In this document: positions 28,964 to 34,119 of the stretch, one piece after another
Numbering within the stretch: the first letter of the stretch is position 1
How the letters are laid out: the number at the start of each line of letters is the position of its first letter
NCBI GenBank assembly: GCA_903907175.1
Contig: CAIVNB010000069.1
Coordinates: 1 to 34,119 of the forward strand
Length of the DNA stretch: 34,119 nt
Source of the DNA: an uncultured bacterium
GTDB lineage: Bacteria > Patescibacteriota > Minisyncoccia > Phycocordibacterales > UBA9973
Reading direction: 5' to 3'
Program-made: the position numbers and the translations under genes
Notes under the pieces: generated by a model
Databases searched by the model: none
What the model was told of the DNA's origin: nothing
The model's input: only the letters and a program-made list of their open reading frames with translations

Positions 28964-30961
28964 CTACTGAGCATTTACTGTTTGGGTGGGAAAAGGTAAA
29001 TTCAAAAACCCATAACTATTATACCAGTCATTCGTGTAAGGACCATTAAAATTATTGTGTACATTGGGAAAAGATTCAGACATGTCAGACCATAAAAAAT
29101 TATAATAACTAACCAAAGAAGAGTCTAGCCCTGTTTTAGATAAACCATAATAAAAACTTGAAAATGATGTTTTTAAATATCTGCCTCCAGACAATAAATC
29201 AGTGTCTGAAGGGATGTTGGTTGTAATAGAAGCAGAAGTAGAAGATGAATTCAAATTATTAACATAAGCTTTTAGTGTATATGTATGAGTTTCTCCCGCA
29301 GGAATCACTTCTTCCTGTTCAAATGTCAAAACAATTGTATTTGTTGTACCTGTCCCTATCCCAAGATCTATCGTTAATGGAGAAAAACTAGACCCCATTA
29401 CACTACCAATGGAAACTGAATTTGAATAATCATTTTTATCTTTAAGGAGAGAAAATTTATTCAACCGAAGATTATAATTACTTGGATCACTGAGTGTCAC
29501 AAGGAAGGTTACTTGCTTAAAAGATATACTTCCGTTTGGATCAGAACTTACATTAAATGTATATAGATTTATGTTTGAACCACTTCTAACACTTGAATTG
29601 GTAGAGGCAATATATGCAACAGTTGGAACACTATTAAATAAATAAAGACCATTTACAGTAACTCCGCTCGATGGCAATCCAAGACTATTAGTAGGGGCAC
29701 TGTAGTTAATATAATCCGTGGCAACTCCATATGTTAATATCCCTGTACTATTTGTAGCTTTAGTATAAATTAAAACTGGAGCAACATTTATATTTGTACT
29801 GCTAGAATCAATTGTCTTATTTAAATCATAATTAATTGTTATATATTTTGATGAATTCATGGGGACAGAAATATTAGTTAGAAAATCAAAAGTCGAATTA
29901 TTACTATTATAGTCATTTTTCAACACCGCAGTTGCCAATACATTTTGATTACCAGAATCTACTAAAGTAACATTTGATATTACAGCAGTATTTTTTAAAT
30001 TTGGGATAGCGAATTTTAATTCAGATACAACATAAGAATCAGCGCTAGCAGTAAGTTGGAATTTGCCAGCAATAATTTTTTTATTAACTACAGAAAATCT
30101 TACAGTAGGAGTTGTGCCATCTTGGTATGCTGACAGAGCACCTGCGCCAATAGTAATACTCTGTCCTGGAAATAAAACATTTAAATTAGAGTAAACATTA
30201 GAAGAAGAAGCCGCAGATGTTCCTGATATTAATAAATTAGAATTAATAATTGACCCTAGTGGTGTTGAAGAATTAATATCCCCATAAATTGATATTTCGA
30301 TGGATTGACCTACTGGCAATTTAAAATTTATTGCCCAAAAATTATCATCATTCGCTATATCAGAGATAGAGGTTTTATTATCTCCATAAACAGCATACAA
30401 ATTTGAAACATATAAATTCATCAAATATTGATTAGAACTAACATTAAAACCAGCTTCTATTTTATTTAAATTTATATCTTCCGTCGTATTATTTTTTAAA
30501 AAAAAATTAGCTAATTTAACCTTCACCCTAGGAACAGAAACTGACTGGTTAGAATAAGATCCCCCTAATGCTAAATCTAATGAACCGCTGAAAGGCACAA
30601 CCACAGCCGGAACGACTGAAGGAGAAGGAATGTTTGCTACTGCATTTGTTGGGCTAATCGTATTTGAAGATTTTAGTTTATTAGCAACAATTAAAGCTGC
30701 TTTAGTACGGCTAGCCTTACCAAAAGAACCATCAGAAGATAGGCCATTGGCTAGCTGAAATGCCTTAACTGCACTTAGTGTAGCTGGGCCATACTTTCCA
30801 TCTACTTTGCCTTTTAAAAAAGCCTGAGTCTGTAAAAAAATTTGAAGTTCTGTAACAGCAGAACCGCGAGATCCATATTTTAAACTTACATCAAAAGAAG
30901 CAAATGATAAATTTGGCAAGAAAATACTAAATACAAAAACAACCAACAAAATCTTCTTCAT
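28964..30961 (-). CDS. Secreted surface protein with an N-terminal peptidoglycan-binding domain and Ser/Asn/Thr-rich beta-sandwich region
   Basis: Signal peptide; LKYGSRGSAVTELQIFL..DGKYGPATLSAVKAFQ..GL..DG (PG_binding_1). Confidence 0.85.
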   Translation of the reverse strand: MKKILLVVFVFSIFLPNLSFASFDVSLKYGSRGSAVTELQIFLQTQAFLKGKVDGKYGPATLSAVKAFQLANGLSSDGSFGKASRTKAALIVANKLKSSNTISPTNAVANIPSPSVVPAVVVPFSGSLDLALGGSYSNQSVSVPRVKVKLANFFLKNNTTEDINLNKIEAGFNVSSNQYLMNLYVSNLYAVYGDNKTSISDIANDDNFWAINFKLPVGQSIEISIYGDINSSTPLGSIINSNLLISGTSAASSSNVYSNLNVLFPGQSITIGAGALSAYQDGTTPTVRFSVVNKKIIAGKFQLTASADSYVVSELKFAIPNLKNTAVISNVTLVDSGNQNVLATAVLKNDYNSNNSTFDFLTNISVPMNSSKYITINYDLNKTIDSSSTNINVAPVLIYTKATNSTGILTYGVATDYINYSAPTNSLGLPSSGVTVNGLYLFNSVPTVAYIASTNSSVRSGSNINLYTFNVSSDPNGSISFKQVTFLVTLSDPSNYNLRLNKFSLLKDKNDYSNSVSIGSVMGSSFSPLTIDLGIGTGTTNTIVLTFEQEEVIPAGETHTYTLKAYVNNLNSSSTSASITTNIPSDTDLLSGGRYLKTSFSSFYYGLSKTGLDSSLVSYYNFLWSDMSESFPNVHNNFNGPYTNDWYNSYGFLNLPFPTQTVNAQ

Positions 30962-32332: not shown

Positions 32333-33364
32333 TTATATACCAGTTTTAGGCAAAAAGCTAGAAGCACTTGAAACCGCATAGCTTTCAATCTTACTTTTCA
32401 GCTTCTTGGCGTTGCCGTGGCTTACTAGCCCAAGATAGGATTGTATTGTTTCTGGCTTACCTTTTCGCCTCTCTATACCCCTAAACATCCTCTGTTTTGT
32501 AATAGTCCTAACCACTCTATGATCGGGAAATAAAACCCAGCCCAGAAAGTCCACGCCCGAGGCAACTGTGCTTATAGATACTTTTTTCGGATGCAGGTGG
32601 AGATTGAGTTCATTTTCAAGAAAATCTTTTATCTTGGGCAACATATCTACAAGCGACTGCTTATCATCCGATAAAATCACAAAATCATCGGCATAGCGAA
32701 TATAGTATTTTGCCTTAATTTTATGCTTCATAAACTGGTCAAACTTATTCATATAAATGTTTATAAATAATTGTGAGGTAAGATTACCAAGCGGAAGACC
32801 TTTACCCTTTTCGGTAGAATAAAAACTGCTGATAATCTCGTAGAGCAAAGAAACAATGTCAGTGTCTGGTATATAACTCTTTATCATTTCAAGCATCACC
32901 CCTTGGTCAATTGAAGCGAAAAACTTTCTTATATCTCCTTTCAAAACCCAAGCCGTTCTCGTATGATTTTTTGATACTTTGTAGGCAAACTTTCTAAACC
33001 TATCTATTGCTTTGTGTGTTCCCTTATTTACTCTGCAAGAATAGGAGTCGGCAATAAATGTCCTATCAAAAAATGGATACAGCACTCGGTAAATAGCGTG
33101 ATGTAATAATCGGTCCCGAACTTTTGCTTTATGTATATCTCTGGGTTTGGGGTCTGAAATCTTAAATGCTTCATATTCAGAATGTTTGTATGTTTTATTC
33201 ACTAGGTCCTGGTGAAGTGAAATTATATTAGCCATCAGATTTCTCTCAAACTCCTGCACATCTTTGCGAGATTTTTTGCCAACCTTAAACTCTTCCCACG
33301 CAGAGAGCAAGTTGTCTAACCAAATGATATAGTCATAATTATGAACAAGTTGAATGCGGGACAT
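32333..33364 (-). CDS. DGR-type reverse transcriptase
   Basis: KPRDI, RDRLLHHA, SYSCRVNKGTH, LKGDIRKFFASID, GLPLGNLTSQ (DGR-type SQ motif), YIRYADDF, VDFLGW; 343 aa with no maturase or endonuclease domain. Confidence 0.93.
   Translation of the reverse strand: MSRIQLVHNYDYIIWLDNLLSAWEEFKVGKKSRKDVQEFERNLMANIISLHQDLVNKTYKHSEYEAFKISDPKPRDIHKAKVRDRLLHHAIYRVLYPFFDRTFIADSYSCRVNKGTHKAIDRFRKFAYKVSKNHTRTAWVLKGDIRKFFASIDQGVMLEMIKSYIPDTDIVSLLYEIISSFYSTEKGKGLPLGNLTSQLFINIYMNKFDQFMKHKIKAKYYIRYADDFVILSDDKQSLVDMLPKIKDFLENELNLHLHPKKVSISTVASGVDFLGWVLFPDHRVVRTITKQRMFRGIERRKGKPETIQSYLGLVSHGNAKKLKSKIESYAVSSASSFLPKTGI
33325..33333 (+). promoter_or_regulatory. Extended -10 (TGATATAGT) leaderless promoter for avd, located inside the RT gene
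   Basis: 7 nt before ATG 33341, the same geometry as host promoters in this window. Confidence 0.6.
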
Positions 33365-33760
33365 ATTATTTATTCTACCCCCCCCCCCCCGCTTTTGCCA
33401 CTACTGGCAAAAGCGAAAAGCTGTTATTTACAGTGGATTACTTTTTACGAAACTTTGCCAAAAATCCACAAATATACTCTAGGGCAAAAGATTGATACTT
33501 TGTTTGTTGAGGTAATAGAGGCAATCTCTATCGCCACCTTTTTATCTCGTGAAGAAAAACAACCGTGGGTCCGACTGGCAATCAGAAAGACAGATACTCT
33601 CAAGATACTTTTGATGGTTTTATGGGAAGCAAAATCTATTGATAATAAAAAGTATCTTGCTTTATCTGTAAAAGTAGAAGAAATAGGAAAGATGCTCGGG
33701 GGTTGGAGTGGACAGCTCGCAAAACAAAACTCTCCCGCAATAAAGACGAGAGAGAAATGA
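33341..33760 (+). CDS. avd: Avd-like four-helix-bundle accessory variability determinant
   Basis: LPKIHKYTLGQKID, LKILL, Y..LS..VEEIGKMLGGW signature; adjacent to the DGR RT and TR. Confidence 0.88.
   Translation: MNKLNAGHIIYSTPPPPLLPLLAKAKSCYLQWITFYETLPKIHKYTLGQKIDTLFVEVIEAISIATFLSREEKQPWVRLAIRKTDTLKILLMVLWEAKSIDNKKYLALSVKVEEIGKMLGGWSGQLAKQNSPAIKTREK
33372..33400 (-). promoter_or_regulatory. Predicted RT promoter TGGCAA-17(AAGC+G13)-TAGAAT, leaderless
   Basis: -10 at 33372-33377 is 7 nt before RT ATG 33364; the spacer 33378-33394 contains the G13 run. The -35 match is weak. Confidence 0.55.
33378..33390. repeat. C13 homopolymer (simple sequence repeat)
   Basis: Thirteen consecutive C encoding TPPPP in Avd; no comparable G/C run was seen elsewhere in the window. 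Confidence 0.9.
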
Positions 33761-33983
33761 AAAGAGTTGCCAAAGCGGAGTGCGGGATTGTTGGAGTTCC
33801 AGTTGTTGTCCAGCCAGTTCCAGTTCACCACAACCTTGCCACCGTTCTCATAGAGATACGGGACATTCAGGTTGCCGTTGCGGTTCTGCACGAAATGTAT
33901 GGGATTTCTTCTAGTTCCACTGCCCTTTGAATACTCTCGGAGCTGTATCGTATTCGGCATAGTAATGCCCTAAAACCCCATAC
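33721..33983 (-). ncRNA. Putative DGR template RNA (structured 5' domain + TR + 3' hairpin/U-tract)
   Basis: -10 TATACT at 33986-33991; 5' multibranch stems at 33897-33983; TR; 9-bp hairpin at 33730-33754 followed by TTTTGTTTT. Confidence 0.6.
33766..33885 (-). repeat. DGR template repeat (TR); boundaries approximate
   Basis: Reads NRNGNLNVPYLYENGGKVVVNWNWLDNNWNSNNPALRFGN. 13 of 40 codons are AAC/AAT, and 32 of its 33 adenines are at codon positions 1-2. Confidence 0.88.
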
Positions 33984-34119
33984 CAAGTATATTCATTTTT
34001 TATGAAGTGCTACATACACCACTCTATTTGAAACCATAGTCGCAAATACTCTCAATGTATGGATACTGGTCTCGGTGGCAGAAAACCTTAATCTTCTACA
34101 TATTCACCTATCACCGATT

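Follow-up and report, generated by a model that had tools for sequence, protein, structure and literature searches.

The 3' end of the window, by which we mean the whole 34,119-nt stretch analysed here (contig CAIVNB010000069.1), carries what we judge, with a probability of about 0.7, to be a normal DGR of the Patescibacteria/CPR type, in the order target (VR), TR, avd on the opposite strand, and RT, the target and VR lying past the contig end. A reversed avd is the catalogued norm for candidate-phyla DGRs, published in 2018, and the layout is not new. Two further features have, to the extent of Rfam and the literature searched, no published description that we could find: a folded leader of ~225 nt 5' of the TR, with covariation support, and a hypervariable simple repeat at the junction, between the conserved Avd N terminus and the RT start. 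The leader and the repeat should interest those studying or engineering DGRs; the reversed avd itself matters little. Coordinates are collected in Table 1.

Table 1. Features of the DGR at the 3' end of the window (positions of the whole stretch)
Feature	Position	Strand	Basis or remark
DGR reverse transcriptase (RT) gene, 343 aa	32333..33364	-	Pfam RVT_1, E 3e-24; 22 related CPR loci, 48-91% identity
Promoter-like site for RT: GTGGCA (33401-33396), 18-nt spacer, TAGAAT (33377-33372)	33372..33401	-	scan, 9/12 matches
13-nt C run (G run on RT strand), simple-sequence repeat	33378..33390		divergent avd/RT junction
Perfect 10-bp inverted repeat cgcttttgcc-actact-ggcaaaagcg	33390..33415		over first avd codons and RT -35-like hexamer
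avd, 121 aa from TTG 33395 (longest ORF 33341..33760 from ATG 33341, 139 aa)	33395..33760	+	Pfam bAvd; NCBIfam DivGenRetAVD
H8 hairpin CTCTCTCG...CGGGAGAG (33754-33730) with TTTTGTTTTG tail	33720..33754	-	antisense to last ~10 avd codons; terminator-like in scan
Long-range helix H3, 3' strand TTTTCATTT	33755..33763	-	contains antisense of avd stop codon
Template repeat (TR), AAC-rich reading frame	33767..33893	-	127-nt copy with 17 differences; homologous to TRs of 16 relatives
Leader 3' domain: 12-bp H4 (33983-33972 with 33908-33897) enclosing H5, H6, H7	33897..33983	-	RNAalifold, pair counts, model R1
Leader helices within H4: H5 (33969-33966/33959-33956), H6 (33943-33940/33925-33922), H7		-	RNAalifold, pair counts
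H3 5' strand AAATGAATA (33998-33990) and linker TACTTG (33989-33984)	33984..33998	-	pair counts
Leader 5' domain: H1 (34099-34091/34086-34078), H2 (34048-34039/34034-34025), conserved start GGTGATAGGTGAATA	34025..34119	-	RNAalifold, pair counts

Genes, template repeat and orientation of the cassette

The RT translation contains both LGNLTSQ and YADD, which we take to be DGR-type RT motifs, and its relatives in 22 CPR loci (RT identity 48 to 91%) sit in cassettes with TR/VR pairs. In an NCBIfam search this protein scored best against models of group II and other RTs, none of which reached its cutoff, and no DGR RT family was seen among the matches. The neighboring gene scores 43.1 bits against Pfam bAvd, for which the cutoff is 40, and matches NCBIfam DivGenRetAVD at E 1.2e-15 (57.6 bits, under the curated cutoff of 80). 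Its frame is conserved in tblastn comparisons down to 24% identity. Both the profile matches and this conservation on the plus strand argue against the notion that the real gene here is a 171-aa minus-strand ORF (33445-33960), running through the TR and the antisense of avd, with avd as its shadow. Both the window and its closest relative, L004 (91% RT identity), keep that ORF open. However, the ORF has no Pfam match, and the longest open stretch on the RT strand spans only 33 to 90% of avd and is broken in most of 43 loci. We consider this reading extremely improbable and rejected the ORF as a shadow frame.

The VR of the element was found past the window, in contigs of DNA runs X1 and X3, as a 127-nt copy of 33767-33893 located 188 nt beyond position 34119. 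The two copies differ at 17 positions. Of the 11 listed, 8 read T>N on the plus strand, hence A>N on the minus strand. In 16 related loci all or nearly all TR-side mismatches fall at A of the copy as read on the RT strand (18/18 in L004, 22/22 in L009, 12/15 in L006). Because the TR/VR differences are adenine-specific, the TR was assigned to the minus strand. Repeat searches, BLAST and an adenine-masked scan found no VR in the window or in the 835-kb assembly, and the TR/VR pair with differences at TR adenines is accordingly a feature of the X1 and X3 contigs, past the window end. A 198-aa ORF of L004 (2467-3063) terminates in the VR; in the 835-kb genome of the window, this L004 target protein matches only the TR. 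The relatives likewise encode a small target protein with the VR at its extreme C terminus; the target protein has no Pfam or NCBIfam family. Only 6 nt separate the end of the TR, at 33767, from the avd stop codon (33758-33760), and the TR converges on the avd 3' end, as the initial annotation had stated. L011 and L021 were left out of the TR-to-avd-stop distances, their stop-to-stop avd extension having run on.

The ORFs, profiles and TR/VR differences together establish the orientation of all three parts: RT minus, avd plus and TR minus. TR and RT thus have the same orientation and flank an avd of the opposite orientation, which is architecture B3, TR-(avd)-RT, of Wu et al. 2018 (PMC5758913; Nucleic Acids Res 46:11), an architecture that, in the portion of the article available, accounts for 90% of their CPR set. 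The accessible rows of their Table S1 enter CPR genomes as 'TG-TR-(AVD)-RT, B3', and a Yanofskybacteria entry reads 'TG-TR-(AVD)-RT, B3, UVR3', with a VR-to-TR gap of 262 nt. The inverted layout singled out by the initial annotation is therefore already catalogued and is no novelty, and its central observation, an avd antisense to and between TR and RT, is real and conserved. A survey of avd orientation among related RTs, which that annotation had suggested, placed avd by tblastn opposite to and directly upstream of RT in 20 of the 20 loci that hold upstream DNA (22 fetched). Places located independently by the RNA covariance model R1 have the order leader(+), avd(-), RT(+) in 26 of 29 cases, avd again being identified by tblastn. 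The complete order of VR, a gap of 248 to 444 nt, TR, (avd) and RT is kept in 16 of the 22 related loci.

These counts also bear on a local inversion or misassembly, named at the outset as what could undo the observation. The cassette lies at the very end of a contig, in a genome bin of 88 contigs, where an inversion or a chimera arising in assembly might create a reversed avd. However, order and orientation recur in the 20/20 and 26/29 independent loci, some of them in single-contig genomes. The same layout is present in four metagenome contigs ~89% identical to the window over ~1.44 kb; these were found with a shorter search pattern, a longer one with long exact flanks giving no matches. In other runs, contigs span the RT, the region from avd to TR and the leader in the same collinear order, with breaks only at the C run; samples containing the element come from lake water and groundwater. 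An artefact can be set aside with near certainty.

The folded leader and the template RNA

RNAalifold applied to the leader found compensatory changes in 34 of 41 pairs. The leader alignments were made by MAFFT and were not fitted to structure; alignment A3 excludes L021 and L022, and alignment A5 excludes L045, a partial model match. Across 15 loci, 94.8% of the cells are paired, against 43 to 55% in controls with slid partners, and changes on both sides are seen in 43 of 56 pairs. An independent MAFFT alignment of the window and 28 new loci gave 88.5% paired against 42 to 47% slid, with 376 compensatory cells against 82 to 99. With H3 included, the leader thus has a conserved secondary structure, in which 86 to 95% of cells are paired, compared with 42 to 58% in the slid controls. 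The 3' strand of H4 ends 3 nt before the TR. Rfam searches with the leader, TR flank and junction yielded no family, either at gathering scores or at E up to 1. Covariance model R1 matches 24 of 150 evenly sampled genomes of the phylum, and the module is therefore common.

Helix H3 joins a strand of the leader to the 9 nt just 3' of the TR. It is paired in 85.8% of cells, against 45 to 58% slid, with 35 compensatory cells against 3 to 13; it is AU-rich, with 2 of 9 pairs invariant in the first set. In an unbiased RNAduplex search of the leader against the 3' flank, H3 was not the best duplex and the sites were inconsistent (z-scores -1.4 to +1.7), so H3 was tested only by column-wise pair counts. 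The 6-nt linker TACTTG that follows its 5' strand is invariant in the 15 loci of A3, and we propose the strand and linker as the primer-side strand and junction, which would give them a role in priming. A search by eye for a complement of the last TR bases (GGCAAC) as a priming mark found nothing consistent.

On the other side of the TR, a hairpin at the place of H8 is present in 17 of 17 loci, with compensatory changes in 5 of its 8 pairs. It has the form of an intrinsic terminator, in which a GC-containing hairpin precedes a run of U on the transcribed strand. The U-run occurs in all 15 of the closer loci and is absent in L021 and L022, the two most distant, so termination may not be general. 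H8 may be a terminator-like element, an Avd-binding stem-loop or both; Handa et al. (bioRxiv 10.1101/2023.10.23.563531) predict, in the part of the preprint available, Avd-binding stem-loops just downstream of the TR, in CPR elements as well. The avd 3' end is necessarily complementary to the 3' hairpin and flank of the TR RNA (33730-33763). Antisense overlap had been claimed for both ends of avd; at this end it is real, whereas at the 5' end it depends on an ORF call considered below.

Upstream of the leader, 12 of 16 loci have an extended -10 box, TGnTAnnnT, preceded by a hairpin and T-run after the target gene. The TR promoter of the window would lie just off the contig end, where the conserved box of the relatives places it. 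Judged from these sequence features, the TR would be transcribed as its own non-coding RNA of ~400 nt, from the conserved extended -10 promoter to the hairpin and U-run. In one metatranscriptome run the contigs, among them one of 232 nt with 2 differences, are confined to 33876-34107 (4 of 30 bins), a cover that carries neither strand nor level information and could stem from DNA carry-over; it hints faintly at a transcript of its own. Two RNA-library contigs ending at 34106 and 34107 give a similarly slight hint of the leader 5' end. Among the assembled contigs of that run, none covers RT or avd, an absence that says nothing about their expression. The three separate transcription units of the initial annotation hold up in part: the comparison supports a TR in its own RNA gene, and the recurrent box and hairpin make the template RNA look separate from the messages of avd and RT, whereas the predicted promoters for avd and RT stay at chance level.

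We weighed against this the view that a single long minus-strand operon RNA runs from upstream of the leader through the TR and the antisense of avd into RT, with H8 serving only as an Avd-binding stem-loop and the ~370 nt antisense to avd as the equivalent of the BPP-1 spacer. The functional RNA of BPP-1 does extend from the TR into the spacer before brt, according to the available part of Handa et al. (bioRxiv 10.1101/2023.10.23.563531), and the lack of a clear U-run after the hairpin in L021 and L022 fits a read-through RNA, as does the chance-level frequency of RT promoter-like matches. However, the conserved, covarying RNA sits 5' of the TR and not 3' of it, and the U-run follows the hairpin in every one of the closer loci. 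The conservation examined past H8 (TCCAnCCnCC, the antisense of Avd GGW codons) could be explained by Avd coding, and an essential spacer would have to harbour a simple repeat of shifting unit and length. In addition, 8 of 21 loci have a -10-like hexamer 7 nt ahead of the RT start (read by eye). We regard one operon RNA as unlikely and favor a separate template RNA.

The avd/RT junction and its simple repeat

The initial annotation described RT and avd as overlapping head-to-head by 24 nt (33341-33364), each with a leaderless promoter inside the other gene. The ORF coordinates do overlap, but the overlap is an ORF call only and needs ATG 33341 as the avd start. The Avd profile begins at TTG 33395: positions 1-102 of the 104 in DivGenRetAVD align to residues 1-104 of the form starting there. 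L004 has no in-frame ATG at the equivalent of 33341, and its longest avd ORF starts from the homologous TTG. ATG 33341 is itself the antisense of a conserved RT His codon, and among 42 relatives that carry the repeat its equivalent shares the avd frame in only 10. The 32 in which it is out of frame include L004, L057, L058, L059 and L060, which are ~89 to 91% identical to the window.

The promoters fare no better. A scan gave 6 sigma-70-like sites where shuffled sequences give 6.6 +/- 2.8, so the leaderless promoters predicted for RT and avd are not above chance, and promoter collision, like the 5' overlap, depends on the ORF call and on these chance-level matches. A scheme in which overlap, mutually embedded promoters, collision and antisense pairing regulate retrohoming can draw on several observations: across its C13 run the window has ATG 33341 in the same frame as avd; a plus-strand site, TGAACA-16-TATTAT, ends at 33369; and the overlap at the avd 3' end is real. 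There is also one row with overlapping avd and RT coordinates in the part of Table S1 of Wu et al. 2018 (PMC5758913) available. Given the profile start, the frame counts and the promoter scan, we nevertheless consider the scheme quite improbable.

The promoter-like site for RT may still be functional. Its RT ATG lies 7 nt after TAGAAT, hence a leaderless-type geometry, and 8 of 21 loci, again read by eye, show a TAnnnT hexamer at exactly this distance of 7 nt from the RT start. Its spacer contains the G13 run. The outer pairs of the adjacent 10-bp inverted repeat vary compensatorily among close relatives (CG..CG, CA..TG, AA..TT); the inverted repeat is not evident in more distant loci.

The C13 run is the longest of only three G/C runs of at least 8 nt in the 835-kb genome. 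A simple repeat occupies the same spot in 42 of 47 related loci, as poly-G/C of 7 to 17 nt, (GT)n, (CT)n or (GA)n, and the tract ranges from 9 to 13 in length among six close relatives. L004 and L058 are 99.86% identical over 1440 nt, with one mismatch and one gap; within the 45 nt on either side of the tract, their sole difference is C9ACAC against C12AC. Because the tract accounts for every difference between these two loci, the 13-C run may be an on/off switch. As in phase-variable repeats, it sits at a gene 5' end or promoter and varies in length between near-identical genomes. Contigs of three DNA runs break within C13, although homopolymer breaks can stem from sequencing error. The share of relatives with the upstream ATG in frame (10/42) is the chance expectation and fits a frame switch and an untranslated tract equally.

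Taken together, these features suggest a working model, which forms part of the favored reading of the element. The leader would stand in for the 140-nt TR-RT spacer of Bordetella phage BPP-1; H3 would be the primer/template-side duplex, H4 would halt cDNA synthesis, and H8 would be the stem-loop to which Avd binds. The avd and RT genes would be read divergently from a short AT-rich region, and the length of the G/C run would set the avd reading frame, the RT promoter spacer or both; we propose that it therefore gates mutagenesis. A bolder reading, which we offer tentatively and at somewhat less than even odds, takes in B3-type (CPR) DGRs as a kind. They would carry a self-contained template RNA gene of ~400 nt, in which a scaffold that recruits RT and Avd and primes synthesis lies 5' of the template, in a retron-like manner, joined through H3 to the 3' flank and closed by a terminator hairpin that is antisense within avd. 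The machine would be switched stochastically by the junction repeat, with C13 in the window putting the upstream ATG in frame.

Comparison with known systems

The order of target, TR, reversed avd and RT, the host group and the layout are those of architecture B3, as far as the available portion of Wu et al. 2018 (PMC5758913) goes; that portion makes no mention of a structured leader ahead of the TR, or of a simple repeat where avd and RT meet.

The comparison with BPP-1 (Handa et al., bioRxiv 10.1101/2023.10.23.563531, available part) shows both likeness and difference. In each system an RT and an Avd are accompanied by a TR RNA and its flanks, a stem-loop immediately follows the TR, sequences upstream and downstream of the TR are linked by a duplex, and a helix by the TR 5' end could stop cDNA synthesis; the same source attributes putative Avd-binding stem-loops and stop duplexes to CPR DGRs. 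In BPP-1 (mtd-avd-TR-brt), however, avd is co-oriented and upstream of the TR, whereas in the window it is reversed and lies between TR and RT. The BPP-1 spacer, ~140 nt of structured RNA 3' of the TR, binds RT and carries the priming adenosine; in the window the large structured domain is 5' of the TR, and the TR 3' flank consists, unlike that spacer, of a 9-nt strand, one hairpin and a U-run, followed by the antisense of avd. Indeed, the Rfam family built on the BPP-1 spacer has no match in the leader, TR flank or junction of the window. The cis-acting RNA for self-primed, adenine-mutagenic cDNA synthesis thus appears on the other side of the template from that in the only DGR studied biochemically; reconstitution and retargeting could then draw on a template-RNA module of ~400 nt that is both compact and separable.

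In retron msr-msd RNA, a structured part presumed to hold the primer precedes the template, and a long-range duplex brings it to the template 3' end. The likeness of the window RNA is in topology only. The RT clade differs, no msd-type stem or branching G was identified in the window RNA, and the product of the window DGR would be adenine-mutagenised cDNA homing into the VR.

The junction repeat resembles the poly-G contingency loci of Campylobacter, Neisseria and Helicobacter. As in those loci, to judge from the titles and opening lines of abstracts in that literature, a G/C tract of 7 to 17 nt or a dinucleotide tract sits at a gene 5' end or by a -10 box, and its length differs between near-identical strains; within the same material we found no description of a repeat controlling a DGR. 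The repeat suggests that these tiny-genome cells hold targeted hypermutation under a heritable, random on/off switch, a possibility relevant to the open question of DGR regulation in cells. The contingency loci, as described in those titles and abstracts, gate surface structures, whereas the tract in the window would gate a mutagenesis machine.

The cassette with its reversed avd, and its relatives

The DGR parts, three in all, occupy the last 1.8 kb of the window, which is an entire contig (C69) in a genome of 835 kb (88 contigs, 92% complete, 33% G+C). The initial annotation had the RT and the TR on the minus strand and avd on the plus strand, and the ORF, profile and AAC-frame evidence bears this out for each part, 6 nt separating the TR end from the avd stop codon. 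The Avd ORF also scores against NCBIfam DivGenRetAVD (E 1.2e-15, 57.6 bits), under that profile's cutoff of 80. Two genes away, and not the DGR target, is a 665-aa protein (28964-30961, minus strand) in which a peptidoglycan-binding domain (PF01471) is followed by a long Asn/Ser-rich region; its hydrophobic N-terminus resembles a signal peptide, judged by eye.

Searched against one genome per species, the RT returned 22 related loci, 48-91% identical and from bins of CPR/Patescibacteria. With two loci cut by contig ends excluded, avd lies directly upstream of the RT on the opposite strand in all 20 that hold upstream DNA. A VR/TR pair was found in 16 of the 22, both copies on the RT strand with 248-444 nt between them, and in these the TR adjoins the 3' end of the reversed avd. 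Since the layout, including the VR/TR order, is conserved across independent related loci, misassembly is excluded as the source of the reversed avd. The inverted architecture had been put forward as new; it is instead the catalogued type B3, TR-(avd)-RT, defined by Wu et al. 2018 (PMC5758913), whose Table S1 has a Yanofskybacteria DGR row that reads "TG-TR-(AVD)-RT, B3, UVR3". In that row the avd and RT coordinates overlap, like the ORF call of the initial annotation.

The head-to-head overlap of 24 nt between avd and RT is the one part of the observed layout that did not stand. It hinges on ATG 33341 as the avd start. Position 1 of the NCBIfam Avd profile aligns with residue 1 of the TTG 33395 form, and in L004, the closest relative (91% RT identity), the longest avd ORF begins at the homologous TTG and the overlap is absent. 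On the opposite strand this ATG reads as a conserved histidine codon of the RT, and in close relatives the C run always follows it by 37 nt; in six sequences that share about 89-91% identity with one another, its equivalent occupies all three frames relative to avd. An upstream ATG is in frame with avd in 10 of 42 repeat-bearing relatives, which is chance level. The promoters predicted inside avd and RT also lose their footing, as the scan gave 6 sites where 6.6 +/- 2.8 were expected. A candidate promoter directly before the RT is suggestive: GTGGCA, an 18-nt spacer with the G run, TAGAAT, 7 nt and the RT ATG, with a TAnnnT hexamer exactly 7 nt ahead of the RT start in 8 of 21 loci (by our reading). 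A perfect 10-bp inverted repeat (33390-33415, cgcttttgcc/ggcaaaagcg) spans the first avd codons and this candidate's -35-like hexamer. Its outer pairs change compensatorily among close relatives, and its role may be that of an operator or, at the 5' end of avd, of an RNA hairpin.

Coordinates of the cassette parts and of the helices of the template RNA
Feature	Position (5' strand for helices)	Pairing partner (3' strand)	Strand	Remarks
RT ORF	32333-33364		minus	Pfam RVT_1, E 3e-24
avd ORF	33341-33760		plus	Pfam bAvd, 43.1 bits (cutoff 40)
TR	33767-33893		minus	AAC codons abundant in reading frame, a DGR TR signature
H1	34099-34091	34086-34078		
H2	34048-34039	34034-34025		
H3	33998-33990	33763-33755		long-range; leader with the nine bases directly after TR
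H4	33983-33972	33908-33897		12 bp
H5	33969-33966	33959-33956		
H6	33943-33940	33925-33922		
H8	33754-33730		minus	hairpin after TR and H3 strand

The folded leader and the template RNA

The VR-TR gap is non-coding, and its final ~225 nt are conserved in all relatives. In 17 loci RNAalifold predicted 41 pairs there, 34 of them with compensatory changes. Pairs were then counted for a fixed structure on MAFFT alignments not fitted to structure, with partners slid 1-3 columns as the control. Across 15 loci, 94.8% of cells are paired (43-55% when slid), 43 of 56 pairs have changed on both sides, and compensatory cells number 154 versus 23-32. When 150 genomes were sampled evenly across the phylum, a covariance model of the leader 3' domain located the RNA in 24 of them, at 29 places. 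At 26 of these places the order is leader (+), avd (-), RT (+); the other three comprise a place truncated by a contig end, one with just an avd fragment and one with nothing. The same structure holds in an independent set, made up of the window and 28 new loci with a partial model match left out: 88.5% of cells are paired versus 42-47% slid, with 376 compensatory cells versus 82-99. Four genomes (G075, G078, G080 and G144) have the leader RNA in two or three copies, each with its own avd and RT, and the repeat unit or length at the avd/RT junction differs between copies, as with (GA)18 and (GA)5 in G080.

The 3' strand of H4 stops 3 nt short of the TR. The long-range helix H3 is paired in 90.3% of cells in the first set (49-66% slid) and in 85.8% in the independent set (45-58% slid), the latter with 35 compensatory cells versus 3-13. 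It is the least secure element, because an unbiased duplex search did not single it out.

In 12 of 16 loci an extended -10 box, TGnTAnnnT, precedes the leader at the homologous place, and two further loci have TG immediately ahead of TATAAT. Upstream of the box in the relatives, after the target gene, are a GC-rich hairpin and a T-run; the window's own putative leader promoter falls just past the contig end. On the other side of the TR, H8 folds in 17 of 17 loci, with a conserved base and a covarying distal part; in the 15 closer loci TTTTGTTTT comes next, and the scan classed the hairpin as terminator-like. Its position also matches the Avd-binding stem-loop just downstream of the TR that Handa et al. 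(bioRxiv 10.1101/2023.10.23.563531) predicted in 207 of 278 DGRs, those of CPR among them. The avd gene, in its last ~13 codons and its stop, is the antisense of H8, the U-run and the H3 strand; the RNA therefore largely determines the Avd tail, KQNSP...EK. As a fact of sequence, any avd mRNA that extends as far as its stop contains the complement of the template RNA 3' end, a complementarity that may serve regulation.

Of the 1920 nt compared, contigs from one metatranscriptome run cover 33876-34107 alone. One contig of 232 nt has 2 differences, and two different contigs end at 34106 and 34107, near the start predicted from the -10 box, while a contig from X1, a public DNA run of study P1, continues across these positions and beyond the window end. 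These are assembled, strandless contigs for which DNA carry-over is possible, and they hint weakly at an abundant leader RNA with its own 5' end. The idea of a template RNA decoupled from the avd and RT messages survives in spirit, given the folded leader, the conserved -10 box and the terminator-like H8; the architecture itself is not new, being of the catalogued B3 type.

The variable repeat and its target

Repeat search, BLAST and an adenine-masked scan found no VR in the window or the whole assembly, and the sole match of the L004 target protein in the window's own genome is the TR. Past position 34119, one contig each from X1 and X3, two DNA runs of study P1, extends onward and, after 188 further bases, carries a 127-nt copy of the TR with 17 differences, which puts the VR just outside the contig, 414 nt upstream of the TR in the minus-strand direction. 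Eight of the 11 listed differences are T>N on the plus strand, that is, A>N on the TR strand; the remaining three, common to a second contig, look like strain differences. In the relatives, every or almost every VR/TR mismatch falls at an A of the TR (for example 18/18 in L004, 22/22 in L009 and 12/15 in L006). The L004 target is a small protein of 198 aa without a known family in Pfam or NCBIfam.

Right after the VR, past the target gene stop codon, 16 loci have short hairpins and repeated CTTTGA/CCTTG-like motifs (3064-3110 in L004). They may correspond to the inverted repeat that, in the Bordetella element, follows the IMH (the initiation-of-mutagenic-homing site, at the VR end) and aids target recognition. 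An imperfect palindrome of ~50 nt precedes the VR by ~550-650 nt (2343-2396 in L004, where the target gene starts just after it) and recurs at homologous places in L006, L008, L009, L012, L013, L014, L017, L018 and L023; it may be the preceding gene's terminator or the target gene's operator. Ahead of the L004 target, tRNA genes (71-141, 913-983 and 1722-1793) alternate with ORFs (230-922 and 1042-1731) that carry LAGLIDADG endonuclease domains (Pfam). The 9-kb locus L019 has the reversed avd and a G10 run; neither a VR/TR pair nor either of two short leader motifs was found in it, and its template may be divergent or remote.

The junction repeat and a possible mechanism

Only three G/C runs in the genome reach 8 nt, the longest being the 13 C at 33378-33390, and 19 of 21 RT-related loci have a G run of 7-13 on the RT strand at the same place. 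Among 27 loci found with the RNA model, the junction repeat is poly-G of 7-17 nt in 12, (GT)10-14 in three, (CT)6-18 in four and (GA)5-18 in five, with no repeat in three; overall, 42 of 47 loci scored have one. In every case no more than a few codons separate it from the conserved Avd N-terminus; its distance from the RT start is variable. The repeat is unstable. Tracts are 9 to 13 long in the window, L004 and four metagenome contigs near the window's relatives; L004 and L058 share 99.86% identity across 1440 nt, with one mismatch and one gap between them, and in the printed stretch around the tract they differ solely by C9ACAC versus C12AC. The C run is a break point of contigs in three DNA runs. 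Because the tract keeps its place as its length and unit vary, it is a mutational hotspot held at one position whatever the unit.

On the most economical reading, slippage in the tract would switch the reading frame of avd, the spacer of the RT promoter, or both. That the tract is translated is favoured by several relatives in which no ATG, GTG or TTG separates the repeat from the conserved Avd N-terminus; a TTG is present at this place in the window, L004 and L018. The only other G/C runs of at least 8 nt in the genome (G000) are outside the window, on contigs C49 (~23917) and C48 (~7023). One G10 run separates a perfect TTGACA from TATTAT ahead of a 116-aa ORF and another is in codons ~10-13 of a ~140-aa ORF, and the organism may use several repeat switches. 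At the L039 junction (genome G067), a G17 run, an assembly gap of N and a 51-nt C run follow one another, probably an assembly artefact at the repeat.

In the mechanism that we propose, the TR RNA would be a separate RNA of ~400 nt, with avd and RT divergently transcribed and the junction repeat gating the system. H4 would halt cDNA synthesis at the TR 5' end, H8 would bind Avd and/or end transcription, and the cDNA would then replace the VR of the small target protein. H3 would carry the leader to the template 3' end, like the primer side in BPP-1 and retrons, with the invariant linker TACTTG (33989-33984) presumably near the priming site. No Rfam family matches the leader, H3 or the other helices, and a literature search of titles and abstract starts returned no paper describing such a junction repeat; neither this repeat nor the 5' leader scaffold is described in Rfam or in the literature searched. 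RT-associated motifs, including RT-10, were described by Weinberg et al. 2017 (PMC5737381); RT-10 sits in the BPP-1 spacer, on the opposite side of the TR from this leader.
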